Source: Escherichia phage JLBYU24. From it: a stretch of DNA of 64,000 bases. The stretch lies in sequence record OK272476.1, one strand, 5' to 3'. The translations under genes and the position numbers were made by a program. The notes under the pieces were generated by a model. The model saw nothing but the letters and a program-made list of their open reading frames with translations, had not been told where the DNA came from and ran no database searches. Shown piece after piece: positions 2,449-64,000 of the stretch. The number at the start of each line of letters is the position of its first letter. Within the stretch, counting starts at the first letter, position 1.

Positions 2449-4268
2449 TACTGGCTCATCCATTCTTTACGAAGGTCAGCATTATCTCCCATGAGCATTT
2501 CAAAAAGCTCTTTCCAGTTCTCAGGAAGTTTAACAACATCATATACTGGATTTTGAATCATTTCACGATATTCAGATTTTTCCAAAGAGCCAAGTCCTTT
2601 AATATAACGGATGCTATGTTTAGGTAGAGCATCTTTGGCACTCTCATATTCAGCGACTGTATAAAACCATTCTTGTTTTTTACCGACCTGAGCGATGATT
2701 ACAGGAGTTTTGACAAAGCGAATTCGTCCTTGCTCAAACAATTCTGGCCAATTACTAAAAAACCCGAGCAGAGAAGGATAAATGCTTCCTAGACCATCAT
2801 GGTCAGCATCAGTCATAATAGCAATATTATGATAATTCAAGTTTTCAGCTTTTTCACCAAGAACTAATCCAGTGATTGCGCAAATATCAAATAGTTCTTT
2901 GTTTTTAAGCATATCAGCATATGACATACCCCAACTGTTGAGAACTTTACCACGCAATGGATAACCACCATGAAGTTCTTTATCACGAACATCAATAAGA
3001 TATCCGATAGCAGAATCACCCTCAGTCAAGAAAAGAGTAGTATCAGCATCTTTACCGCACAGATTAGCTTTAATATGTTTATGAACCTTTGCCTTAGAAG
3101 CCTTTTTAGCTGCTTTAGTTTCAGCTGCTTTTTCTGCTGCCAATTTACGAGCTAGTGCAGCTTCAATAATTGGCATCAGAATTGCTTCATTATTTAGAAT
3201 AGCGCGTGAAATCTTTTTAGCGTCAAGTTGAATATGACTACGGATTTCACCAAATGGAGAAGTCAAACGCTCTTTAGTTTGAGAATCAAATCGCATGTTT
3301 TTCATATCACGGACAAACATAACGATAGTCAAACATTCTTTGACACGTGCTTTAGTTACATCAATTTTGAACTTACGTTTGATTTGTGGAATAAGGTCTT
3401 CACAAATATCATCCATAACACAGTCAATGTGATGGCCACCATTCTTAGTGTGAATGTTATTCACATAAGTTAATTGGCGAAATCCATCCGGTGAACGACC
3501 AACCGCAATAGAACAATTTTCTTGTTCTTGAACAATAGCATGTTCATCATACTGTCGTGCATATTTCTTAAAATTGCCCTGAACCTTTTTACCATTAAAG
3601 GTAAATTGAATATCAGGATAAACTACTGCAAGTGTCTGGAGACGATCCAGTGTAATGTCAAGATAAACTTGGGACAGCTCATTAGTTTCAAATGACATAA
3701 AATCTGGAATGAAAGTAACACGAGTTCCTTTCCATTTTCCAGGAATAGTTTCCCAGGATTTATTTTCCATGCCATTTGAACAACGAACTACAATATTATT
3801 TTGACCATCGCCAGTTTCACCGACAAACATCACAGAAAAAATGTTTGTCAAACTAGAACCAACACCATTCATACCACCGGTGACGCGTTCTTTATCATCA
3901 CCGAAGTTACCACCCGCTTTTGGAATAGTCCAAGCAGCAACTGGACCAGGAATTTCTTCACCAGTAGGTGTTTTAACCATCGCTTGTGGAATACCGCGAC
4001 CGTTATCTTCAACTGTTACTTGATTGTTTTTAATAGTAACATTAATTTTATTTGCGAATTTAAACTTAGTACGAATACCTTCATCTACTGAGTTATCGAT
4101 AATTTCATCAATAAGCTTAACAAGACCAGGTACATACTGAACACTTTCCCATTTACCAAACAGAAAGCGCTCATGCATTTCATTAGCAGAAGAACCAATG
4201 TACATGCCGCTACGCTTTTTGATATGTTCAATATCGCTCAGAATTTTAATTTCATTCTTAATCATCAC
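2448..4268 (-). CDS. 39: DNA topoisomerase II large subunit, continuous ORF covering T4 gp39 plus gp60-equivalent C-terminus
   Basis: 606 aa; GyrB-like ATPase motifs (IDNSVDEG); TOPRIM-like MTDADHDG segment read without interruption. Confidence 0.9.
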   Translation of the reverse strand: MMIKNEIKILSDIEHIKKRSGMYIGSSANEMHERFLFGKWESVQYVPGLVKLIDEIIDNSVDEGIRTKFKFANKINVTIKNNQVTVEDNGRGIPQAMVKTPTGEEIPGPVAAWTIPKAGGNFGDDKERVTGGMNGVGSSLTNIFSVMFVGETGDGQNNIVVRCSNGMENKSWETIPGKWKGTRVTFIPDFMSFETNELSQVYLDITLDRLQTLAVVYPDIQFTFNGKKVQGNFKKYARQYDEHAIVQEQENCSIAVGRSPDGFRQLTYVNNIHTKNGGHHIDCVMDDICEDLIPQIKRKFKIDVTKARVKECLTIVMFVRDMKNMRFDSQTKERLTSPFGEIRSHIQLDAKKISRAILNNEAILMPIIEAALARKLAAEKAAETKAAKKASKAKVHKHIKANLCGKDADTTLFLTEGDSAIGYLIDVRDKELHGGYPLRGKVLNSWGMSYADMLKNKELFDICAITGLVLGEKAENLNYHNIAIMTDADHDGLGSIYPSLLGFFSNWPELFEQGRIRFVKTPVIIAQVGKKQEWFYTVAEYESAKDALPKHSIRYIKGLGSLEKSEYREMIQNPVYDVVKLPENWKELFEMLMGDNADLRKEWMSQ

Positions 4269-4607: not shown

Positions 4608-4977
4608 ATTTAATGGCTTGAAGAAGACTAATAATTCTCAAGCGACTTCTTTCATCTTTAACTGTAAAAGAAAGAGGGTCACCAGATTTCATAGTGATGG
4701 TGCATCCAAAATCAAAATCTTCTGTAACTTCTTCGAAGAAGTCAAATTCTTCATCATAAATTAGAACATTACTCTGAAAGCTGTGAAGAATTTTTCCATC
4801 ATTTCCAGATGCTGTACTAATCATTGTAACATTATGACCTTTCATATCTTCAACGATAAATTCGCTTGTAGATATTACAGCATTAATAGAACCATTCCTA
4901 TAAATAGCAGACATTAGATATTTCTTTTCTTCGCCTTCGCGAATACGATATTTCTTACCGATTTTAAACATAATCAC
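4600..4977 (-). CDS. hypothetical protein
   Basis: 125-aa ORF; track start is GTG at 4975-4977, likely ATG start at 4969-4971. Confidence 0.45.
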   Translation of the reverse strand: MIMFKIGKKYRIREGEEKKYLMSAIYRNGSINAVISTSEFIVEDMKGHNVTMISTASGNDGKILHSFQSNVLIYDEEFDFFEEVTEDFDFGCTITMKSGDPLSFTVKDERSRLRIISLLQAIKFE

Positions 4978-7159: not shown

Positions 7160-7596
7160 TAGCTTACACGAACATTAATCACTGCGCTGCGAGGAACTAC
7201 AGAGTACTCTCCAGCATGAACTACGTTCAGAAGTTCAACACCATCTTCAATCCACTGATCAGTCACCCATCCACCCACAGGATTCGCGAATGGACGACGA
7301 ATATAAACTGCCTTACACAGCAGATCAGTTGGATCTTCAGGTTTTTCAATTTCTGTCAATAGACTAAAATCTTTTTCATAAATAATAAGCGGTGATACCA
7401 TTCCATAATAGTTTCTAATTTCAATATACATCATACCGATAAGAATTCCGCTATTAACACTAATAACAGTAAAAGGATATCCGCCAGTTAAACCAAGAAG
7501 TTCACAAAACTTATTATGAGCTGTATTAGACAGTACCGAAAAATTCTTAATTTCATCAAATTTTTTCAATTGATAAACAGCATTATTTTTAATCAT
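7159..7596 (-). CDS. MotB-family C-terminal-domain paralog
   Basis: C-terminal GGWVTDQWIEDGVELLNVVHAGEYSVVP matches motif of the two neighbouring ORFs. Confidence 0.45.
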   Translation of the reverse strand: MIKNNAVYQLKKFDEIKNFSVLSNTAHNKFCELLGLTGGYPFTVISVNSGILIGMMYIEIRNYYGMVSPLIIYEKDFSLLTEIEKPEDPTDLLCKAVYIRRPFANPVGGWVTDQWIEDGVELLNVVHAGEYSVVPRSAVINVRVS

Positions 7597-13388: not shown

Positions 13389-13571
13389 TTATTTTGCCCA
13401 GGGAGCCCAAGGCGGAGGGTCAAGATGGTATGAAGCTAGTTCTTCTAGAAGAGCATCTGGGGCTTCAATTCCATAATTCTGTAATACTATACGGTACTCT
13501 TTCTTATAATCACTAGAATCATTCTGGTTATTCGTAGAATGATTATCTTCTAACATCTCAAATAAATCCAT
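13389..13571 (-). CDS. hypothetical protein
   Basis: 60-aa ORF. Confidence 0.4.
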   Translation of the reverse strand: MDLFEMLEDNHSTNNQNDSSDYKKEYRIVLQNYGIEAPDALLEELASYHLDPPPWAPWAK

Positions 13572-13579
13572 ATTAATTC

Positions 13580-14050
13580 CTAGCGATAAAAACCAAAGTG
13601 ACGATTAGCTTCAATGATCTTTCTTTCTTCTTCGGACATTCTCCAGCGTAGTCCAACATCAAAATGAGCCCAGACCATCCTAACAAATGCATTTATATCT
13701 TTAATATCTTCAATAATGAATGTTTTACTTTTAGAAGGTTGACTCGCTAATTTAACTTTATCGTCTTCAAACATGTCAAAAAGACCATATTCATGAGCTC
13801 TTTTATAGCCTTTAATAGTTAAAGCTTCAGAAGAAGAAAATGGTGAATCTGTATTCTGCAAAATATCTTCAGTATGCTTTATAATTAGAATAACATTTTC
13901 TGGATATTTTCTTTCTTTTATATCTTTAATTAAAATATCCGGATTTTCTGCTAAAGGAATAATTAACGAGCATTTTTTATCAAGTGTATTTACTGATTTA
14001 CCTTCTTTAGACATAAATTCTATTGAATATAATTTTGCTACTTCAATCAT
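13580..14050 (-). CDS. hypothetical protein
   Basis: 156-aa ORF. Confidence 0.45.
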
Positions 14051-14052
14051 GT

Positions 14053-14215
14053 GATTTCCTTTTGCCTACTAATGGACCGTCAGGAATTTTGTTTTCCTGA
14101 ATGTATTTCTCATTTTCTTCCATCATTTTACTACCGATTTTAAGAAGCAAATCCATTGCTTCATTTGCTTTAGCCTTTGCCTCTTCTAACGTCATATCTT
14201 TGGTCATGATTTATC
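14053..14215 (-). CDS. hypothetical small protein
   Basis: ~53-aa ORF below track cutoff; stop overlaps ATG of 13580-14050 ORF. Confidence 0.35.
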
Positions 14216-14407
14216 ACCATAGATGTCTCTCATCAATTTAAGCGCTGAGCGTTCTAATTTCTTTTCTTTCTCAGCACTAATCATTGATTTTATCCATTCT
14301 TCTGACTCGTTCTGCATTTCTTTATTTGCCTGTTCAACCCAACCATCATCAATATACATTGAGTTTGGTCTATTGAACCATTCAAGCATTTTCTTCAGAA
14401 CTTTCAT
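14204..14407 (-). CDS. hypothetical protein
   Basis: 67-aa ORF. Confidence 0.4.
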
Positions 14408-14879
14408 TTGTTTTACCTAAAACGATAGTATGGACAGCGTCAAATTCATGAATTTTTAGCAAATTAGGATTTAAATTATTCCATAAAGAGGTAATAAAAT
14501 ATGATAGCGCACTTTCGTCCGTAATTATAAATTTATTTCCTTTATCTATTTTCCAATCATATATTGAATCGTATGAATAGAAGGATAACGGTTTATTATT
14601 ATAGTATGCTTCAGCAACATCAATATAGTTAGATTTAGTAAATGCTTGAATTGCCATAAATGGAGAATTTTGTACAGTTTCAATAATTCCGATCTTTTTA
14701 AGTTTTATTTCAACATCTTCTGGAACTGGCATTGAAATAAAATCTTCTACTAGATACATGTCATTGTCATATCTTTTATCAATCATTACTGCTACTGTAA
14801 TTGGAACATCCTTGACAAACGCCATACTAATACTATTGATAGACATTTCAAACAAAATCGCTTCCATAATTTTCCTCAA
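14382..14879 (-). CDS. hypothetical protein
   Basis: 165-aa ORF. Confidence 0.45.
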
Positions 14880-15217
14880 TCACAAGATGTAGATGAACAA
14901 CTAGAATCACAAGAACTTCCACATGAATCGCCCGTCCATACATGAACAGGAACATTAGTATCATATGAATCAGAACTAGACTGTGTATTCTGTGCATTAG
15001 ATGATGTAGTAGGTACTGACCAGCGCCAAGGATTTTTATAATATTCTTGGGCTTCTTCATAAGTCATAGTAACTGCTTCTACTGTTCCATCTCCCATATA
15101 AACATACTCAACTACAGTTAAAGGAAGGTAGTCATTTGAAATAGGAACTACACCTTCTCCCGGAGTTGTAGAGAAAAAATCTGTAAAGAAATTTTTAAAC
15201 CAATTAAATATAAACAT
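14876..15217 (-). CDS. hypothetical protein with Ser/Cys-rich C-terminal tail
   Basis: 113 aa; C-terminus [19 protein letters not shown]. Confidence 0.45.
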
Positions 15218-15429
15218 TACAAAAAGCCTCTTTGAAATTCGACTCTTTGAAATCCACCCCAGTCAGTATATCGCATTTCAGCATTGAACTCGACTGAACC
15301 ATCTGCATGCATCATGAATGAATGCGTGACGACATCACAATCCCAGCTTTTCATACCCCATTTATCAGAGATAGCTTTATCAAGAACCTTCTGAAGGTCT
15401 TCATTTGGTTTAATCCAACGATTTAACAT
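15217..15429 (-). CDS. hypothetical protein
   Basis: 70-aa ORF; early promoter upstream. Confidence 0.45.
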   Translation of the reverse strand: MLNRWIKPNEDLQKVLDKAISDKWGMKSWDCDVVTHSFMMHADGSVEFNAEMRYTDWGGFQRVEFQRGFL

Positions 15430-15455
15430 AGTGTTCTCCTCTATAAGATATTTTT

Positions 15456-15485
15456 ATTATACCACACTCATTTTGACATGTAAAC
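15456..15485 (-). promoter_or_regulatory. T4-type early promoter
   Basis: plus attata 15456-15461, gtaaac 15480-15485. Confidence 0.5.
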
Positions 15486-15500
15486 CATAAAATGAAAAAA

Positions 15501-15518
15501 GGAATCCCGAAGGATTCC
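15501..15518 (-). terminator. intrinsic terminator-like hairpin with UUCG loop followed by U-run
   Basis: ggaatcc-cgaa-ggattcc just 3' of soc; minus-strand RNA has U-rich tail. Confidence 0.6.
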
Positions 15519-15527
15519 TTAAATTAT

Positions 15528-15785
15528 TTAACCACCTACACCAGGTGTAGGTGTAACAGTCCAAAGACCTTCATTAGCAGTGATCCATTCAGTACGCTGA
15601 TTTTCTTCATATACTGTAGAATATGCTGCTTTTTCAGAAGGGAATGTCTGATAATGAGCACCAGAAATTTTGTGAACATCAGAATAAAGAGGGAAAGCTA
15701 CAGAAATTTCTTTACCCTGAATTGTACCACCATCAACTGCTTGGTCAAATGTTTTGATATTAACATAACCGCGAGTACTAGCCAT
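15528..15785 (-). CDS. soc: small outer capsid protein Soc
   Basis: 85 aa; MASTRGYVNIKTF...ISVAFPLYSDVHKISGAHYQTFPSEKAAYSTVYEENQRTEW matches remembered T4 Soc. Confidence 0.92.
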   Translation of the reverse strand: MASTRGYVNIKTFDQAVDGGTIQGKEISVAFPLYSDVHKISGAHYQTFPSEKAAYSTVYEENQRTEWITANEGLWTVTPTPGVGG

Positions 15786-15801
15786 GTAATTCTCCTTTTA
15801 T

Positions 15802-16011
15802 TTAAATTACATGATTATTTATAATAAATTCTCGCGGAACGTTAAAATACCCGATTTTAGTTAATATAACAACATCGCCGTTAATAATTACCGGAGAATA
15901 ATCTTCTGGAGCATTAAATTTCCAATGGGCTCTAATATTATATCCATCAGAACCAAATGCTCGCGTAGCTGGTCTCCCAGCTTTTTGCCATGCGTAGAAA
16001 TCAAATTTCAT
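15802..16011 (-). CDS. hypothetical protein (soc.1-like position; no segF-like endonuclease here)
   Basis: 69-aa ORF between soc and gene 56. Confidence 0.4.
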   Translation of the reverse strand: MKFDFYAWQKAGRPATRAFGSDGYNIRAHWKFNAPEDYSPVIINGDVVILTKIGYFNVPREFIINNHVI

Positions 16012-16202
16012 TTTGAATGCTCTATAATTAATTTTAAAGCTTCTTCACTGACAAAAATTTCGTCAGGACCTTCTATAACTTCAACCATACGAAGTTGATT
16101 AGTTAAGAGCTCACATACGAGCTCCTTGTTATAATCTTTAAATAGCTGGTCAATACGTTTCTTATGGGCTTTCTTGAGCTGACGCTTATTTAAACGAGCC
16201 AT
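16008..16202 (-). CDS. hypothetical protein
   Basis: 64-aa ORF overlapping neighbours. Confidence 0.4.
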   Translation of the reverse strand: MARLNKRQLKKAHKKRIDQLFKDYNKELVCELLTNQLRMVEVIEGPDEIFVSEEALKLIIEHSK

Positions 16203-16720
16203 TAATAACCTCGGTCTTGACGAGCGAAGTTTTCAGCATTTTTCAGATAATAAAGTTTAAATATTTCTTCAGCTGACATTCCAAGAGCAATGAATTTATT
16301 CATGAAAAAGTGAAATTGATCAATCAGTTCAAATTTAATTTCAAGCTGATCTTCAGGAGATAAATCTTGAATTTTCTTGGATTGCATTTCAGAATAACGT
16401 TTCTTCCAAGGTTTCCATACAGCAGAAGCTTCTTTTTCGCCATTACTCATACCACCGAGAGAAGTATATAGCTCGCGAGTTTCGTCTGCGATATAATCGT
16501 CTTGGTTTCGCAACCAAGCAAGAACTTCTCCCGCAGTTTCAAGTGAATCAGGATGACGATTTGTTTCTGGTTTATCATTAGCCAAACGAATCTGTAAATG
16601 CCGCTGCATGTCAAGCATAACCTGCAATGGGTCAATACTGTGCATAATATACTCAGCATATGCACGATTTGCTTTATCAACACCTTCGATCAAATGAGCA
16701 CATTCATTAAAGTGAGCCAT
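16202..16720 (-). CDS. 56: dCTP pyrophosphatase (MazG-like), gp56
   Basis: ATG at 16718-16720 with AGGA RBS gives ~172 aa; track ORF is an upstream extension. Confidence 0.75.
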   Translation of the reverse strand: MAHFNECAHLIEGVDKANRAYAEYIMHSIDPLQVMLDMQRHLQIRLANDKPETNRHPDSLETAGEVLAWLRNQDDYIADETRELYTSLGGMSNGEKEASAVWKPWKKRYSEMQSKKIQDLSPEDQLEIKFELIDQFHFFMNKFIALGMSAEEIFKLYYLKNAENFARQDRGY

Positions 16721-16791
16721 TATTTTTCCTTTCAATTCATGGGTTAGTAGATTAATTATACAATAAATATATAAAGCAATAAGGAGGACAT

Positions 16792-16992
16792 ATGGTACAA
16801 AAATTAATGGCACTTGTTAATGCCATAAAAGGTAATAAAAAACGTATAGCTTTTACTATTTCTGCTATGGTAGGAATTTTACTCTGGAACTTTATTCTAT
16901 CACCTGTTGCAATTGCACATGGTATTAATATTCCAGTAGTTACTCTTGATACATTTGTAGATTTAGCATTTGCTTTAGTTGGGTTAATTTAA
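16792..16992 (+). CDS. small hydrophobic protein on the plus strand
   Basis: 66 aa; strong SD taaggagga 5 nt before ATG; two predicted TM segments; intergenic between genes 56 and 61. Confidence 0.4.
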   Translation: MVQKLMALVNAIKGNKKRIAFTISAMVGILLWNFILSPVAIAHGINIPVVTLDTFVDLAFALVGLI

Positions 16993-18017
16993 ATCTTAGC
17001 ATATTTAGATAACCGCATTTTAGCCATCAACCCCTGGGCAATATTATTTTTCATATATTCCATAATTTGTTCAGGGGTTGCACCTTCCTTTCTAATCATA
17101 TCATTAACATCTTTTGATTTCCAGGGAGATTTATCCCAAAACATAACCCTTTCTCCTGCATCAACTAATTTAGTCATTCGCTTAATAGTGTCAGGATGAC
17201 GAGGTTCATTATCTAAAACCCACACACGTCTATCTTTAAATGGAACAACTTCTAGGTCTAATTGACCACCCGTAATAGCTATACCATTTTCAATAAAAAG
17301 TGAATCTATAGGTCCTTCTAGAACATATACATCACCATCTTTAACTCGTTCAACACCGTAAATTTTTGTTGCCTCAGGATAAGCTTTAATGGTGATATAT
17401 TTTTGAGGAGCATCTTTCTTTAATGCACGTCCTTGAAAAGACTCAGCTTTTCCATTAGCATTATAAATTGGAATAACAAGACGAGGCTCAGAAATTTCCT
17501 TTTTGTATGTTCCCGGTGCTATGCTATTAACTAATTTAGGCCATTCAGTTGTAAACCAAAGATATTTCCATTTATCCTTTGGAATACAACGAGCTTTTAC
17601 ATATTTTATAATTGCATGGTCTTCCGCCAGTTTATCTAATCGAACACATGACGGAAGAGATTTAATTATTTTCTTCTCAGGTTGTTTAGGAAGTTCTTTA
17701 GGTTTTTCTACTGGACGACTTTTACCTTTTTCTTTTCTTATTTCAAAGATATACTCACGATATAAATCAGGTTCAAACTCCTTTAAATATATTCCGATTG
17801 GTGCATGATAGTTACAGTTATAACAATGAATATTTCCTTCATTATTATCACCATAATACCATCCACGAGCTTTATTCTGGTCGGTTTTTGAATCTCCACA
17901 AACAGGACATCTAAACCGTAATTTAAAAGTTGAACTATTATTTACTTGTGTGAATTTAGGTAAATGAGCTAATGCACGGTATGCAAACTCATTATCAATC
18001 CAAGGTATTGATGACAT
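16989..18017 (-). CDS. 61: DNA primase gp61
   Basis: 342 aa; zinc ribbon CPVCG...CYNC; TOPRIM-like core; length matches T4 gp61. Confidence 0.92.
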   Translation of the reverse strand: MSSIPWIDNEFAYRALAHLPKFTQVNNSSTFKLRFRCPVCGDSKTDQNKARGWYYGDNNEGNIHCYNCNYHAPIGIYLKEFEPDLYREYIFEIRKEKGKSRPVEKPKELPKQPEKKIIKSLPSCVRLDKLAEDHAIIKYVKARCIPKDKWKYLWFTTEWPKLVNSIAPGTYKKEISEPRLVIPIYNANGKAESFQGRALKKDAPQKYITIKAYPEATKIYGVERVKDGDVYVLEGPIDSLFIENGIAITGGQLDLEVVPFKDRRVWVLDNEPRHPDTIKRMTKLVDAGERVMFWDKSPWKSKDVNDMIRKEGATPEQIMEYMKNNIAQGLMAKMRLSKYAKI

Positions 18018-18019
18018 TT

Positions 18020-18184
18020 TTACTCTTCTTTTTCTTTAGATTCCTCTTTTTTCTTTTTAGGAATCTGTTCAGGACCTTTATTTACTACAGCGCCTGATGT
18101 TGTTCCAGTAGAGATATTTTCAGGACTACCGCCTGAATCTCCAGCGACCATATCTTCTTTGATAAATTCTTTATATGTTTTCAT
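18020..18184 (-). CDS. small protein with capsid-targeting-sequence-like N-terminus (MKTYKEFIKE)
   Basis: 54-aa ORF below track cutoff; stop overlaps gp61 start; Lys/Glu-rich C-terminus. Confidence 0.4.
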   Translation of the reverse strand: MKTYKEFIKEDMVAGDSGGSPENISTGTTSGAVVNKGPEQIPKKKKEESKEKEE

Positions 18185-24796: not shown

Positions 24797-25048
24797 TCAT
24801 TCCTTCTCTCTGATGATAATTACCTGATTTGGCTGCGCAGACTTTTTAGTTTCACCTGCAATTGACCAAATAAATGTAATAAACCAACCAATAATTGACC
24901 AGTTAAACAGTAAAGATGTGAAAAAGATTCCTACTGTCGATTTTGACCCACGCATCAAGGCGATAAACCATGGAAGCATGTATATAATAATAGCCAACAC
25001 GCCTGAAACTAAAACCATAAAAATTGAACCTGCTACTAAAGTTTCCAT
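24797..25048 (-). CDS. imm: Imm superinfection immunity membrane protein
   Basis: 83 aa, two hydrophobic segments; position downstream of gp43. Confidence 0.75.
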   Translation of the reverse strand: METLVAGSIFMVLVSGVLAIIIYMLPWFIALMRGSKSTVGIFFTSLLFNWSIIGWFITFIWSIAGETKKSAQPNQVIIIREKE

Positions 25049-25055
25049 GTTTTCC

Positions 25056-44583: not shown

Positions 44584-44799
44584 TTACCCCAGTTTAACCA
44601 TACAATCGCCATATTTCCACTTAGAAATAGACTTTTCGCCATTAGAATAATAAACTTCAAGTTTAGCACGGTTATTTTTAATTTGAATAACCTTGGCTGT
44701 CATCAAAGTTCCATACCCATAATAAACTGCAACTTCATCACCTACATATACCGCGCTTCCGCGGTAATCATGAATATAGTCAGTTCCTTCGAGCATCAT
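44584..44799 (-). CDS. hypothetical protein
   Basis: 71-aa ORF overlapping nrdC stop. Confidence 0.4.
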   Translation of the reverse strand: MMLEGTDYIHDYRGSAVYVGDEVAVYYGYGTLMTAKVIQIKNNRAKLEVYYSNGEKSISKWKYGDCMVKLG

Positions 44800-45059
44800 T
44801 TAAAATATTCTCGCAGTTGGTCAAATCCACCAATATGACTTCCATCAGGAGCAAATACCTGGGGCATTGTCAAGCCGATTTGAGTATCACGACCTAGTTT
44901 AGTCAGAAGCTCAGCGATTTTCTCATCATCAAAAACACCTTTTTCCGGCATAATGTTGATAAATTCAAACGGTTGTTTCTTCACTGTCAAAAGACGTTTT
45001 GCATTATCGCAATACACACATTTGTGGATGTTGCTATCATAACCATATACTTTAAACAT
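44796..45059 (-). CDS. nrdC: glutaredoxin NrdC
   Basis: 87 aa; CVYC active site. Confidence 0.85.
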   Translation of the reverse strand: MFKVYGYDSNIHKCVYCDNAKRLLTVKKQPFEFINIMPEKGVFDDEKIAELLTKLGRDTQIGLTMPQVFAPDGSHIGGFDQLREYFK

Positions 45060-45060
45060 A

Positions 45061-45339
45061 TTATTCCTTAATTCCTAGTACTTGTTTAAAAGTCTCGTCG
45101 TAATCAAGACTTTGGCCCGTTTGTTCTTTATGTTTGTATATAATATCACTTACTTCTGATAGCATATTTTTGTATGAACGAGTTAAAGCAGATTTAAGCA
45201 CGCTGTATCTATCAGGAAATTTACCATGTTCATTATAATAAGCTATTGCTAATTCACGGACTGCCTTTTCAGCAGCCTCCATATATTCTTTACGCTTGGT
45301 CATTTTAATCCAAAATATTATTAGGCATTGGTTGAACAC
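45061..45339 (-). CDS. hypothetical protein
   Basis: 92-aa ORF. Confidence 0.4.
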
Positions 45340-45694
45340 TCACAAGTTCTTTAAAGAACTCAGTAGAGTCAGGCAATTTAACCATTTCCGGAGCATGCTT
45401 ACTGAATTTATGTTTACATTGACGGCATTTATATTCAAGCTCTGGTTTACGCCAGTTAATCAATTGAACTTGTTCAGCACCGCATTCAGGGCAATTAGGA
45501 ACGTTTTTAGAAGCTCTTTCACGTCGTTCAACCATAGCCATAATAGCATCCCATGCTGGAGGTTTAAAATCTAAATCGTCGCAGCCATGAATCTTTCCAC
45601 GCATTTCCATATCATCTTCCTCACCAGCCATAATAATTTTAATTAAACTGGAATTACTTGAAGCTGCAATGTCTTCTAATAAACGCTTTTTCAT
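45305..45694 (-). CDS. zinc-ribbon protein
   Basis: 129 aa; CPECG-x17-CRQC. Confidence 0.45.
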
Positions 45695-46620
45695 TTCAAT
45701 ACCTCAATAGCATTACGTAAACCATTTGCTTTTGCATTAAGAGCTTTTAACAATTTGGTGTGTTCGGCAATCTGGGCTTCAACTTCAATCAAACGAGCAT
45801 TGAGATATTCGCGTTCTTCGCTCAGATTATCAACCTTTTCTACTTTAGGCTCTTTTACAACTGTCTTATATGTATTAGGGTTCTTCAGTTTAATTAGAAT
45901 GCGTGAACTATATAACATTGAACCGTTATCTTCGGTTTCGTCATACATTTCTACTACGTCCATGATTTTTAACATCATGCGAAGTTTATAAGACAACGAA
46001 CGAATAGTTTTGTTGTGCTTATTAATTTCTTTAGCTGTCATGGTGCCGAGATTACGTGAGTAATAATAAGGAACCTGGATATTAATTAATACTGATGAAC
46101 CACCTGGCTTGTGTGTTACTTCATCAGCAATAACCCAGTCCTTAACGTGAACTGTATTTGTACGGTCATCGCCCGCGGTAAATAGTTTGCGAGCATGCTT
46201 AAAAAGCATATTCACTTGGTCATTGAATTGACAAGCAAATTTATCAGCAAAGTTAGTTTCAGGAATGGTAGATAACCAATCAGCCAAATGGGTCTTTTTA
46301 ACATCGTTAACAATAGTAAATTCAACCAAATCGGTTATAGATGTCTCAGATTTAATAAAGCTCGGCTTCATAAAGTTTTTAATGTTCTCACGAGCTACAG
46401 TAGAAGATAACATACGAGAACGTTTAAACCATTCAAGCAAATTGCCTAACGAATGAGAATAAGCGTTTTGAGTATCTTTACAGATATGATTTTCCTGACC
46501 AACATATTGAAGGAAATCACGAAGAATATTATTGATTACTGCTCTGTGCCCGATCTGATAATTACGGTGTTTAGTAATAAGACTGTCAAAATAATCAATA
46601 TAATGTTTACGAGTTTTCAT
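45691..46620 (-). CDS. hypothetical protein with C-terminal coiled coil (family member A)
   Basis: 309 aa; N-terminus MKTRKHYIDY; C-terminal ~50-aa heptad-like segment. Confidence 0.5.
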   Translation of the reverse strand: MKTRKHYIDYFDSLITKHRNYQIGHRAVINNILRDFLQYVGQENHICKDTQNAYSHSLGNLLEWFKRSRMLSSTVARENIKNFMKPSFIKSETSITDLVEFTIVNDVKKTHLADWLSTIPETNFADKFACQFNDQVNMLFKHARKLFTAGDDRTNTVHVKDWVIADEVTHKPGGSSVLINIQVPYYYSRNLGTMTAKEINKHNKTIRSLSYKLRMMLKIMDVVEMYDETEDNGSMLYSSRILIKLKNPNTYKTVVKEPKVEKVDNLSEEREYLNARLIEVEAQIAEHTKLLKALNAKANGLRNAIEVLK

Positions 46621-46672
46621 ATTCTTCTCACTTGGTTAATGGTTTATACTCCGAGCCATCCTTGGCTTTAAA

Positions 46673-47674
46673 TTACTTAATTAACTGTAAAGCTTGTTCA
46701 AGACGATCAAGACGATTAACGGATTCTTCCCAAATCTTTTTAGCCTGCTCATATTCTTTCTGCGCTTTATTAGAAATTTCTAGAACTTCTTTATAAGCTT
46801 TTTCTAGTGCAATAACTTCTGGACGAATTTCTACCGGTTCAGGTGAATCGTCAAGATTATCCATTAGTTCCTCAAGGGTAGTTTCTTCTTTAGGAGTATT
46901 CACAATTTCCTCACATTTTTGTTGATAAATTTCTTTATCAGTAGGTGAATAAGCACATTTCACTTCACGAAGACTAATTACAATTTTATATCCTTCCCAT
47001 CCGCATATATTCTTAAAAGGATATGTATGAATATTTTCTACTGTTTCCATACAAAGTAATGCAGTCTCTAACTGACGAGTTATAGTGCTAGCAATTGAGA
47101 AAAATTTATTAATATTCTTTTGGTTAGTTTCTGGTGTAAAAAATCCATAATTCACAAAAATAGCTACTTTATTTTTATCAAGCTCATATTCTTTTACGAT
47201 AATCATATCAGAAGCCAAAGGATGAATTTGACGATAATCGCCATAACATAATTTAGAAGCTGATTTTAGAATTTGTCCTTTGAAAAGTCTGAAATTACTA
47301 ATCCAACGACGAGTAAAAATATTCTCAGGGTCTTCTTTATTATTAAGATGATAAGAATTAACATCACCGAACCAATTATATCCTACTACATCTTTAGTTC
47401 GTTTAATTTCTTTCCCAAAATTACCAAGAATATCCCGATTAACCAAATATGAAAGAAGACGAGACTCTTTAAAAGTTTTTTTGATAACATCTTTATCTAC
47501 ACGGCTAGAAATTTTACGAATTTCATGAATAAATTTAGTAGAAGAAACAATACTTGCATCAACACTATTGAGCCATTGATTGATAATAGAAAGAACGATA
47601 TTTTGACCAAACATCGGTATAGCTTTATCATCAATAACGCTATTGAATGATTTGATATATTCGTTACGAGTCAT
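46673..47674 (-). CDS. hypothetical protein with C-terminal coiled coil (family member B)
   Basis: ~333 aa from MTRNEYIK with GAGGAG RBS; track start overlaps promoter. Confidence 0.5.
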   Translation of the reverse strand: MTRNEYIKSFNSVIDDKAIPMFGQNIVLSIINQWLNSVDASIVSSTKFIHEIRKISSRVDKDVIKKTFKESRLLSYLVNRDILGNFGKEIKRTKDVVGYNWFGDVNSYHLNNKEDPENIFTRRWISNFRLFKGQILKSASKLCYGDYRQIHPLASDMIIVKEYELDKNKVAIFVNYGFFTPETNQKNINKFFSIASTITRQLETALLCMETVENIHTYPFKNICGWEGYKIVISLREVKCAYSPTDKEIYQQKCEEIVNTPKEETTLEELMDNLDDSPEPVEIRPEVIALEKAYKEVLEISNKAQKEYEQAKKIWEESVNRLDRLEQALQLIK

Positions 47675-47702
47675 ATTAATCTCCTCAGTAGAAAGTAAGA
47701 AC

Positions 47703-47732
47703 ATTATACCACATCCTTGTGGCGAAGTAAAC
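47703..47732 (-). promoter_or_regulatory. T4-type early promoter
   Basis: plus attata 47703-47708, gtaaac 47727-47732, tgtgg extension. Confidence 0.5.
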
Positions 47733-48736
47733 TAGTTTAGTGCATTTAGTGCGTTGTTCAATTTAGAACGTTGCTTCGTGAGATTTTTTACTTTTTCTTG
47801 AGCTTTTTCTAGCATCTTTTCAGCTTCTAACACTTCATTAGTTGCTTTAACGAGTTCATCATCTACTGCCTTGATAGACTTCTCAATCGCATCCGCGTGC
47901 CATTTTTCAACAGGTTTAAGACTCGGATTTTCAACAGGAAGAAAATTCACTTTATTGAATTTCCATGCATCATTATTACCTGAACTATACATCCAAAATT
48001 TAGGATCGTTTGATGAGTAATTAGTTTGGGGTTCAGGTTTTTTCTCTTGTGTAACTTCGTCCTTTCTCAAAAAATCATATTTAAATGAAACGATCATATC
48101 AAGTTCATATGTTGTCGTATCTAATTTAAATCGTTCGAAATGCTGCGAAATCTTAGACTGAACAGCAGAAACAACATCCATATACTTAAATGCTTCTGTC
48201 AGCTGTGATTTAAGACATTCACAAATTGAAAGAGAATTTTTAGTACTAGGTTTAAAGCTAATTCGTGCAGTTCTATTATTTTCTTTTAATGGTCTTACTT
48301 CCATCTGAAGAGTATAACCATCAAATTTCAGATTCTTTAAGTTAATATCAGAGCCCTTTAATCGACTAGCAGTAGACAAAATTTGCTTTAATTGTTTACG
48401 AAATAGAGCAATAAATCTCCATTCAATACGATAATGATTTGGATTAAAAAATCCTGTTGATAAATCAACCTTACTCTGACCAACGCCTTGAACAAATAGA
48501 GGATTTTTATAATCAATAGTTTTACAGAAATCGGTGAGCTGCTCACGAGCAGTCATTTGAGTAATATACCCTGCTTCATTAAAATGACGTAACCATTCAC
48601 TGCTATTCATATACTTAAAGTGAATATCACGATTAACTTTATCAGGGTCTAAATTATTTTGGCACAAAAATGTCATAACATTACGGGTATAGCTGGCATT
48701 ACGAACCATATCTTCAATTTGAGAACGAGTTTTCAT
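47732..48736 (-). CDS. hypothetical protein with C-terminal coiled coil (family member C)
   Basis: 334 aa; N-terminus MKTRSQIEDM. Confidence 0.5.
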   Translation of the reverse strand: MKTRSQIEDMVRNASYTRNVMTFLCQNNLDPDKVNRDIHFKYMNSSEWLRHFNEAGYITQMTAREQLTDFCKTIDYKNPLFVQGVGQSKVDLSTGFFNPNHYRIEWRFIALFRKQLKQILSTASRLKGSDINLKNLKFDGYTLQMEVRPLKENNRTARISFKPSTKNSLSICECLKSQLTEAFKYMDVVSAVQSKISQHFERFKLDTTTYELDMIVSFKYDFLRKDEVTQEKKPEPQTNYSSNDPKFWMYSSGNNDAWKFNKVNFLPVENPSLKPVEKWHADAIEKSIKAVDDELVKATNEVLEAEKMLEKAQEKVKNLTKQRSKLNNALNALN

Positions 48737-48744
48737 AGTGTTCC

Positions 48745-49653
48745 TTAAGATTTAAGTAAATCAACAATTTTAATTAATTTTTCACGCTCAGATTTAGCTT
48801 TACTACTCAATCCAGATAGTCTGAAAATTTCATCGTCATACTGTTGAATAGAAATATTCAGCTCTTCAATTTGCTTATTAAAATAATCAATTTGCTCAGA
48901 ATGTTTTTCATTACTGCGAACTGGTACAGGTTTTGTAGGCAATTTAGTTAAACTGGATTCATCCGGGCGATAAATTAAAATACAACTTGAACCAATCGGG
49001 CATTTAGCACCAGACACATATTCTAATGTTCCGGCTTCTTTTAAAACTTCAAAAGCTAAACAGAGATGATGCCCCATATTAACATAATCTGTAGAGCGAG
49101 CTCTAATATAATAATCATCACCGCGAATACTAAATTTAAAGCATTTAAGGTCTTCTGTATTATTGGTCTTAAAAATCATTTGTTTATCTAGACCTTTAGC
49201 TAATCGAGCGCCTAATGCTAATAATCGTCGTTGATTTTCCCACAAATCCGCAATCATTTGGTCAAATGATAATTTCGGCATTAGTCGACCATAAAGGTCG
49301 TATCCTTTATTATAATTGCGAAGGATTTCACTCGCGTTAATACGAGACAATGCTCCAATTTTATTAAGGGCTTTCATAATGCGATTAGATAAACCCATTC
49401 CAGACCCGTTTGTTCGTTGTAAATGTTTATCTAATCCAAATCCAATATCAACTTTAAACTTATCTAAAATTTCTGCATGAACATCTCTGTCAATAACATT
49501 CAAATCCAAAGTTGGGTTAAATCTATGAAAAAATTTATCTGGCTCTCCACGACGAAGTACAGTCCATTCATTCAATTTTTTATTAACTAAAGATTTAATT
49601 ACTGCATTGACATTATTAATTACTACTGACATATTTTCCTCACTCAATTTCAA
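48745..49653 (-). CDS. hypothetical protein with C-terminal coiled coil (family member D)
   Basis: 302 aa; same architecture, more divergent. Confidence 0.45.
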   Translation of the reverse strand: MKLSEENMSVVINNVNAVIKSLVNKKLNEWTVLRRGEPDKFFHRFNPTLDLNVIDRDVHAEILDKFKVDIGFGLDKHLQRTNGSGMGLSNRIMKALNKIGALSRINASEILRNYNKGYDLYGRLMPKLSFDQMIADLWENQRRLLALGARLAKGLDKQMIFKTNNTEDLKCFKFSIRGDDYYIRARSTDYVNMGHHLCLAFEVLKEAGTLEYVSGAKCPIGSSCILIYRPDESSLTKLPTKPVPVRSNEKHSEQIDYFNKQIEELNISIQQYDDEIFRLSGLSSKAKSEREKLIKIVDLLKS

Positions 49654-50047
49654 TTTTACTAAATACGCAGAATATGATGGAAAAGACTATATAAGCACCG
49701 CATATAGATTGAACTAATACCATTCCAAAGAACCAAACAATATTATCAAACAATGTCTGTTTTACGTCGAAAGGACGTAAACTTACAGTAATATTATCAC
49801 CTTTTTCTATTGAAGAATACATCTCTGGAGAAATATATTCGCTAAATCTATAACCATCATTCAGCTCATATACAGCAATAAACGATAAACTAGACCCCTT
49901 TCCTTGTGTTCCTGTAAAGGTATTAACTACAGTAACATCATAATCTTTATAATGCATATAATCATTAATAGCATAATAACCATATGCAACTACTACGCAT
50001 AAACAACATATCAATAAATTCAATCTTTTAATTATCAACTGTTTCAT
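49640..50047 (-). CDS. membrane protein
   Basis: 135 aa; N- and C-terminal hydrophobic helices. Confidence 0.45.
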   Translation of the reverse strand: MKQLIIKRLNLLICCLCVVVAYGYYAINDYMHYKDYDVTVVNTFTGTQGKGSSLSFIAVYELNDGYRFSEYISPEMYSSIEKGDNITVSLRPFDVKQTLFDNIVWFFGMVLVQSICGAYIVFSIIFCVFSKIEIE

Positions 50048-56699: not shown

Positions 56700-56912
56700 T
56701 CATTTTTGTCCTGTATTTACTTTATGCCGATGCACGGCCTTAACTTTATCAAGGTATTTTTCAAAATTTCGCAATCTAGTATAGTCTGCCGGAGATTGGT
56801 TGAGTGATACTTCTCGACGCAAAGCTGAAATGATATTTCCAACTTCCCTACGAATTTCATCTAATTGAAGAACAGTAAGATTGCGAAGTTGCTTTTCAGT
56901 TAATTGTAGCAT
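56700..56912 (-). CDS. hypothetical protein
   Basis: 70-aa ORF. Confidence 0.4.
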
Positions 56913-56955
56913 ATAATACCCCTTTAGTTAGATAAACCTATTTATAACTTTTGCA

Positions 56956-60928: not shown

Positions 60929-61290
60929 TATAAGCTCTCAGTAAAGGTACGAGCAATAACGTCGCGCTGCTGTTCCGGAGTCAGAGAATTAAAGCGAACT
61001 GCATAACCTGATACACGGATGGTCAGCTGCGGATATTTTTCCGGATGCTTAACTGCATCTTCCAGAGTTTCACGACGCAGAACGTTAACGTTCAGGTGTT
61101 GACCACCTTCAATTTTAACTGTAGGCTGTGGCTCAATTTCAATTTCACGGGCATGCAAACCGTAGAAAATTTCTGGGTCTACAAAAGAGTCCTCTTTAAA
61201 GGTTTTAGAGACAATAATTCGTGCTTGAATACCATCTTCAAAATAAATAGTACCTTTATGTGTGCCTTCAAGAATTTGATATGCTTTCAT
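60928..61290 (-). CDS. autonomous glycyl radical cofactor (GrcA/YfiD-like)
   Basis: 120 aa; C-terminus [60 protein letters not shown] with RVSGYAV glycyl-radical motif. Confidence 0.8.

Positions 61291-63266: not shown

Positions 63267-64000
<734 letters not shown>

Follow-up and report, generated by a model that had tools for sequence, protein, structure and literature searches.

The plus strand of the 64,000-nucleotide stretch of Escherichia phage JLBYU24 DNA analyzed here (sequence record OK272476.1; the whole stretch is hereafter the window) carries, between gene 56 and gene 61, an open reading frame (ORF) of 66 codons. Judged by its conservation, this ORF is a real coding gene shared by T-even-type phages (Tevenvirinae and the related Marfavirus). 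It is preceded by a putative late promoter and its product is probably a protein with one marginal membrane helix, whose amino terminus stays inside, and a short carboxyl-terminal helix. The combination of a real gene, late expression and a membrane protein is given a probability of about 0.8. The gene itself is already known, being a conserved hypothetical that is annotated in this genome and in hundreds of relatives. The present analysis adds the purifying selection, the conserved late promoter, the one-span topology and the recognition of a gap in the T4 annotation. The features of the gene, in window positions, are:

16762–16769, plus strand: putative late-promoter box AATAAATA, recognized from its sequence as the A(-13) variant of the T4 late consensus TATAAATA.
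A16775, plus strand: predicted late transcription start, placed from the position of the box.
16780–16787, plus strand: Shine-Dalgarno (SD) sequence TAAGGAGG, followed by 4 nt (ACAT) and then the ATG.
16792–16992, plus strand: coding sequence (CDS), ATG to TAA, 66 amino acids (aa), for a predicted small membrane protein of the PHROG 2024 / RB69ORF029w family.
16846–16917, plus strand: codons 19–42, predicted membrane-spanning helix (AlphaFold2 helix 16–42, hydropathy).
16945–16980, plus strand: codons 52–63, predicted short carboxyl-terminal helix, hydrophobic or amphipathic, with a conserved acidic residue at its start.

The ORF was proposed in a first-pass annotation of the window and is present exactly as described there, from ATG to TAA; it codes for the protein MVQKLMALVNAIKGNKKRIAFTISAMVGILLWNFILSPVAIAHGINIPVVTLDTFVDLAFALVGLI. 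Window region 16200–18020 is 100% identical to Escherichia phage JLBYU31 (Tequatrovirus gizh; window position 1 corresponds to JLBYU31 position 3896) and 98–99% identical to many T4-like phages. The GenBank record of JLBYU31 already contains the ORF, under the name hypothetical protein JLBYU31_46. Among the 95 CDS of that record in window 1–50000, no other lies on the plus strand, which goes further than the initial claim that no other plus-strand ORF was clear of minus-strand genes. The length of the ORF is by itself not significant in DNA of 34% GC; it exceeds chance because of its conservation, its codon-position bias and the architecture of its promoter and SD.

The tblastn search with the 66-aa protein retrieves 692 phage records (subfamily A), 686 of which cover at least 80% of the query. 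About 500 of the records have at least 90% identity (Tequatrovirus) and another 190 are at 44–57% (Mosigvirus, Gaprivervirus). Subfamily B has about 20% identity to the window protein and the same motifs, and is found in Dhakavirus (JS98), Marfavirus (Klebsiella phage Potts1), Kanagawavirus, Mosugukvirus (PM2), Moonvirus and others. A subfamily B query matches 136 records, a count that overlaps with the 692 of subfamily A because Gaprivervirus genomes carry both subfamilies. The position of the gene in the inspected genomes is fixed: it lies on the plus strand between genes 56 and 61, convergent with the primase gene and usually overlapping its 3' end. This holds for Tequatro-, Mosig-, Gapriver-, Dhaka-, Marfa-, Kanagawa-, Mosuguk- and Moonvirus and for a metagenomic T4-like contig, the sole exception being DK-13, in which the ORF and gene 61 are separated by an inserted homing endonuclease gene. 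RB49 (Krischvirus) has no such ORF and its genes 56 and 61 are only 14 bp apart; the gene is therefore not universal among T4-like phages.

The differences between orthologs accumulate mostly at the third codon position (differences at positions 1/2/3):

JS98 versus Potts1: 10/6/40.
Window versus Mosigvirus: 29/12/40.
Mosigvirus versus Gaprivervirus: 33/13/44.

The proportions of synonymous (pS) and nonsynonymous (pN) differences between JS98 and Potts1 are 0.88 and 0.12, respectively, and the ratio of nonsynonymous to synonymous substitution rates (dN/dS) within genera is 0.05–0.7, mostly below 0.4. By these substitution patterns, the frame is under purifying selection. The Gapriverviruses carry A and B as tandem copies with 8 nt between them; B is broken in three of six genomes and A is intact in all six, which fits two redundant paralogs, one of which must be kept. 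The intact B copies are those of UPEC01, VR25 and VR26, while those of DK-13, TH40 and a VR20-like genome are broken by a stop at codon 2 and by frameshifts.

The T4 reference NC_000866 has an intact 66-aa ortholog at 17738–17938 on the plus strand, with GATAAATA and AAGGAGG upstream. It sits in a 310-bp “empty” gap between dam and gene 61. The ortholog is not annotated in NC_000866, AF158101 or KJ477684, nor is it in the JS98 and PEi26 records. Omics studies that use the T4 annotation therefore cannot report the gene.

The TAAGGAGG 8-mer is found once in the whole window, both strands counted, and this SD is the strongest ribosome-binding site of the window. Orthologs retain GGAGG- or GGAG-type SDs. 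The near-consensus taaggagga noticed in the first-pass annotation is thus confirmed, the only correction being that 3 nt, not 5, separate it from the ATG. Upstream of the SD, the same annotation saw an A/T-rich tataaa-type element, aataaatatataaag, that would resemble the late-promoter box without matching it. The element is there, spanning 16762–16776, and the TATAAA comes after AATAAATA; the supposed mismatch does not hold because 16762–16769 is AATAAATA, a known variant of the box. T4-type late promoters need no -35 element and are A/T-rich directly behind the box, as this one is. T4 late boxes occupy positions -13 to -6 relative to the transcription start (Nolan et al., PMC1524935), and the start is therefore placed at A16775, giving a predicted leader of 17 nt that includes the SD. 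The 50 listed T4 late promoters comprise 32 perfect boxes and nine with A for T at -13, the commonest natural deviation from the T4 late consensus (Geiduschek and Kassavetis, PMC2988020). Position -13 is also poorly conserved, being A or T, among T4-like phages (Nolan et al., PMC1524935).

A NATAAATA-type box is found upstream of the ATG in all 13 genomes examined, which represent at least nine genera. It starts 21–30 nt before the A of the ATG, leaving a gap of 13–22 nt between box and ATG. The box has the form N-ATAAATA, with AATAAATA in the window, RB69-type phages and JS98, GATAAATA in T4 and PM2, CATAAATA in Gaprivervirus and PEi26, and the perfect TATAAATA in Potts1, Q7622 and Kosakonia phage 305; Moon carries ATTAAATA instead. 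The sequence around the box is not alignable between genera. The conserved box probably acts as a late promoter, one that earlier promoter scans overlooked; none had been assigned before to the RB69ORF029w family. T4 early and middle transcripts are all of one polarity and either polarity is found only in late transcripts (PMC2988020). A plus-strand gene at this place would thus be expressible in the late mode only, because early and middle T4 transcription uses the other strand.

The ATAAATA core is depleted about 4.5-fold in the window, with nine copies on both strands versus 41.1 ± 6.0 expected from dinucleotide-preserving shuffles. All five minus-strand copies sit 13–30 nt before an SD and ATG. 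The genes behind them are soc, gene 49 (a gene 49-like ORF), a 70-aa ORF and the lysozyme gene e, which has two boxes and is documented with two late promoters. Soc and e are T4 late genes in early regions whose architecture of late promoter, SD and ATG with a short leader is the same as that of the 66-codon ORF; its box-to-ATG gap of 22 nt compares with 13–30 nt for e, gene 49 and soc in the window. They differ from it in that they lie on the minus strand like their early neighbors, whereas the ORF is on the opposite strand and convergent on an essential early gene, and in that its box has A instead of T at -13. Note that the 70-aa minus-strand ORF, at 56912, has a perfect TATAAATA (ATAAATA at 56939–56945) and an SD upstream and is another small putative late gene. 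Three more plus-strand ATAAATA boxes (4900–4906, 7378–7384 and 61243–61249) lie inside minus-strand genes and have neither an SD nor a plausible ORF behind them; they may be late promoters for antisense RNA, or chance copies that are tolerated.

The AlphaFold2 model of the product, built from a 20-sequence alignment (mean predicted local distance difference test score, pLDDT, of 82), features helices at residues 2–12, 16–42 and 52–63. Only residues ~19–42 have a length and hydrophobicity sufficient for a membrane span. The carboxyl-terminal segment has 12–15 residues with two Asp and scores +6 to +11 kcal/mol in a rough, position-independent hydrophobicity sum. Such a segment would not span the membrane alone, which argues for one probable span and not two. 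The two hydrophobic helices of the first-pass annotation are thereby reduced to a single span-like one, its partner being too short and carrying two Asp. One span agrees with the single transmembrane segment (21–41) predicted for the RB69 ortholog RB69ORF029w (Nolan et al. 2006). The net charge of the flanks across the family is +1 to +6 at the amino terminus and 0 to -2 at the carboxyl terminus, which fits the positive-inside rule and favors an N-in, C-out orientation. The carboxyl terminus of the window protein, ending in DTFVDLAFALVGLI, is hydrophobic with a net charge of -2. P38 is invariant in the family, W32, N33, G44 and P48 are nearly so, and an acidic residue is conserved at position 53. 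The family signature reads: a basic cluster, ~12 hydrophobic residues, then W-N-(F/Y/L)-x3-P-x-(A/L)-(A/L/S)-x2-G-x3-P-x-(V/I)-x-(L/I/M)-(D/E). The protein yields few tryptic peptides, for example IAFTISAMVGILLWNF.

Residues 2–66 align to positions 1–65 of the 65-position profile of PHROG 2024 (E=1.4e-31), whose category is unknown function. The ortholog RB69ORF029w / RB32ORF030w, whose RB69 protein is 55% identical to that of the window, has the same position, strand and size, and nothing substantive differs. An exhaustive profile search among 1.84 billion representative proteins gives 17 matches, all of 33–70 aa. Pfam has no match for the single protein, nor for the 20 alignment members at E up to 5, and NCBIfam has none. 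The best match of a profile search against PDB sequences is YejA, at E=0.94 only; Foldseek finds nothing better than E=5 in the PDB and only the family's own members in BFVD. Similarity to Ldr-like type I toxins is restricted to a profile match in one of the 20 members, at E=0.1. The most distant members (E 1e-5 to 1e-3) are encoded in non-T4 phage contigs; there they share the strand of the tail genes and immediately follow a gene for endonuclease VII. Their placement at the end of a structural (tail-gene) operon is consistent with late expression. PHROG scans of their neighbors give a minor tail protein and an Rz-like spanin at E ~0.006, too weak to be used.

The neighboring genes and the minus-strand signals that overlap the ORF region are:

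16202–16720, minus strand: gene 56 (dCTPase), divergent neighbor, assigned by homology and annotation.
16989–18017, minus strand: gene 61 (DNA primase), convergent neighbor, assigned by homology and annotation.
16755–16778, minus strand: T4 middle-promoter-type site (MotA box TGCTTTA, 11 nt, TATAAT) upstream of gene 56.
16797–16826, minus strand: terminator-like hairpin ATGGCATTAACAAGTGCCAT with a T-run, downstream of gene 61 and inside ORF codons 2–12; by a narrower delimitation it occupies 16807–16826, in codons 6–12.

The TAA of the ORF (16990–16992) overlaps the minus-strand stop of gene 61 (16989–16991), and these two stop codons (together 16989–16992) are the whole overlap between the genes. 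No minus-strand ORF of at least 30 aa is present inside 16814–16988 in the ORF list of the window. A GTG-started, 203-aa version of gene 56 (16202–16813), which would overlap the start of the ORF, is an artefact; the annotated, homology-supported start is the ATG at 16720, giving 172 aa. The window differs from T4 in having no dam between gene 56 and the ORF and no segF beside gene 56. Product names in the JLBYU31 record look unreliable in window 13389–16202 and 44798–49978. Three adjacent genes are named “small outer capsid protein” and only the one at 15528–15785 is Soc; the record also has runs of “thioredoxin” and “molybdenum ABC transporter”, and the 54-aa gp61.1 is named “major capsid domain-containing protein”.

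The middle-promoter-type site, 35 nt upstream of the gene 56 start, belongs to a set of 13 in the window (2.5 expected), of which 10 are on the minus strand. Reverse-complemented, its spacer reads as the late box, and both promoters are thereby interlocked back to back. Related middle-promoter-type sites in shifted register are found in Mosig-, Gapriver- and Dhakavirus, and the Yersinia phage fPS-90 record has a predicted middle promoter annotated at the same place. In the T4 annotation, oriA lies within gene 56, 22 nt from its 5' end, and is primed by the gene 56 transcript; the middle-promoter-type site is probably the promoter of gene 56 and of the oriA primer transcript. The hairpin is annotated as “terminator” in fPS-90. 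Structure conservation, tested across genera, confines it to Tequatrovirus and it thus does not explain the conservation of the ORF.

Five points weigh against a late membrane protein gene at this place. Nolan et al. 2006 list no RB69 late promoter in front of ORF029w. The searchable literature yielded no transcript, ribosome footprint or peptide evidence for the ORF. The late box in this genome could be partly a by-product of the overlapping middle promoter; it is not simply that, because in several other genera the box is present and no middle promoter is detectable. The best 19-residue segment across the family scores -2.4 to +3.6 kcal/mol by the same rough sums, i.e., it is only marginally hydrophobic. 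Finally, no similarity to a characterized protein is found in Pfam, NCBIfam, PDB sequences or PDB/BFVD folds, and any functional assignment is therefore inferential. Weighed with these points, the first-pass view of a genuine plus-strand gene for a small hydrophobic protein, here read as probably late, is supported by the purifying selection, the fixed place beside the primase gene and the conserved late box and SD.

The preferred reading can be laid out as follows. After the onset of replication, host RNA polymerase with the late sigma factor gp55, together with gp33 and the gp45 clamp, would initiate at about A16775, and the short-leader mRNA would be translated efficiently. The 66-aa product would enter the inner membrane with its basic amino terminus in the cytoplasm and residues ~19–42 spanning the bilayer, with the last 24 residues, acidic and hydrophobic, as a tail on the periplasmic side. 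That the product binds itself or another membrane protein is suggested by the nearly invariant Trp-Asn in the span and the Pro/Gly/Pro after it. The most speculative step is that the product might modulate something that happens late at the envelope, for example the timing or inhibition of lysis or superinfection exclusion; a role in lysis or exclusion is conceivable but rather unlikely. The best guess, held with low confidence, is a late inner-membrane accessory protein that may act via helix-helix contacts, possibly in lysis control or exclusion.

Two T4 proteins offer a likeness. Imm, which confers superinfection immunity, is also a small phage inner-membrane protein without an enzymatic domain that presumably acts by membrane contacts. 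The imm gene, annotated in the window at 24798–25049, lies on the early strand, whereas the ORF would be a late gene only. No similarity of Imm to the ORF product was detected, profile searches returning only the ORF's own family. The antiholin RI, whose membrane domain is of the signal-anchor-release (SAR) type, has a weakly hydrophobic amino-terminal membrane domain followed by Pro and small residues, as the ORF product has, and the possible role in a late envelope event is common to both. The RI periplasmic domain has ~75 residues and binds the holin T, while the ORF product has 24 residues beyond the span. The latter also has an 18-residue basic amino-terminal extension without counterpart in RI, and the likeness is a tentative one.

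The alternative that survives best is that the hydrophobic stretch is a long signal peptide or a SAR domain, in which case the 24-residue carboxyl-terminal peptide, or the protein once released, would be active at the periplasmic face. Conserved in the family is P38-x-A-x-(A/S/T)-x-G44, where a helix breaker precedes small residues at -3 and -1, as is the case at signal peptidase I sites, and most members have an A-x-A-like site. The amino-terminal region is basic, as the n-region of a signal peptide or a releasable anchor would be, and the span is marginally hydrophobic and rich in small or weakly hydrophobic residues, in which it presumably resembles the SAR domain of T4 RI. Against cleavage stands a hydrophobic region of ~19–24 residues, longer than that of typical cleaved signal peptides (about 7–15 residues), which holds invariant residues: a nearly invariant W32-N33 is unexpected inside a disposable targeting sequence. 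Mosigvirus members have moreover a Leu at -3. Processing or release of the protein is accordingly considered unlikely.

A very improbable alternative is that the RNA matters more than the protein. Transcription antisense to gene 61 and to read-through early RNA, or late occlusion of the gene 56 middle promoter, would be the function and translation would be secondary. The ORF and gene 61 converge in nearly all genera and their stops overlap, which would suit such a role, as would the back-to-back overlap of the late box with the minus-strand middle promoter and the T4 oriA at the start of gene 56, with the gene 56 transcript as primer. No plus-strand terminator-like site is found from the ORF to at least 21545 (4.5 kb or more) and late transcripts may therefore run antisense into gene 61. 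The strong purifying selection at the protein level, a frame that stays intact at 61–67 codons across highly diverged genera and the maintenance of a perfect SD speak against RNA as the principal product, and if only the RNA counted, amino-acid motifs like WN...P...G...P would not be kept. Note that RNA and protein roles are compatible with each other.

That the ORF codes for a holin or a pinholin-like lysis protein is likewise very improbable. A small, hydrophobic and predicted late product would fit this reading, and one database name favors it: UniProt A0A482MZV5 from phage OE5505, 91% identical, is called “Holin”. This is the label of a single submitter among hundreds of “hypothetical protein” entries, and no holin family is matched in Pfam or NCBIfam at E up to 5. 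The carboxyl terminus is hydrophobic and acidic, unlike the charged hydrophilic tail typical of holins. The neighboring genes code for dCTPase and primase and not for an endolysin, lysozyme e lying ~46 kb away at 63761. T-even phages, moreover, already have a well-characterized holin, T. Tequatrovirus copies have two in-frame Met, M1 and M6, and a Lys in between, which recalls dual-start holins; this idea was rejected since M6 is absent outside Tequatrovirus.

That there is no gene at all, the ORF being a chance frame in an AT-rich spacer conserved through the gene 61 terminator and the gene 56 middle promoter/origin, is scarcely credible: the minus-strand hairpin and middle-promoter-type site do overlap its 5' end and the T4 reference, JS98 and PEi26 records do not call a gene, but the excess of third-position substitutions with dN/dS well below 1 already contradicts this reading, the frame is open in every genus while the hairpin is found only in Tequatrovirus, most of the ORF (16827–16988) lies outside the minus-strand signals and the exhaustive profile search finds apparent relatives in unrelated phage contexts.

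As it stands, the late membrane protein gene is a solid but ordinary conserved hypothetical. T4 is among the most thoroughly studied viruses, yet its reference annotation lacks this conserved gene, which is the only clockwise gene amid more than 50 kb of early genes that run counter-clockwise. A late promoter, a very strong SD and its retention in every Tevenvirinae genus examined suggest that the gene is probably useful late in infection, at the membrane. A more far-reaching proposal, unlikely on present evidence, is that all T-even-type phages have here an overlooked late inner-membrane protein with a specific late envelope role, whose promoter is interlocked with that of the oriA primer. 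If this were true, the late switch would turn the gene on, shut off the gene 56/oriA origin promoter and direct antisense RNA into the primase gene, and the envelope role could be the tuning of holin triggering, lysis inhibition or late superinfection exclusion.

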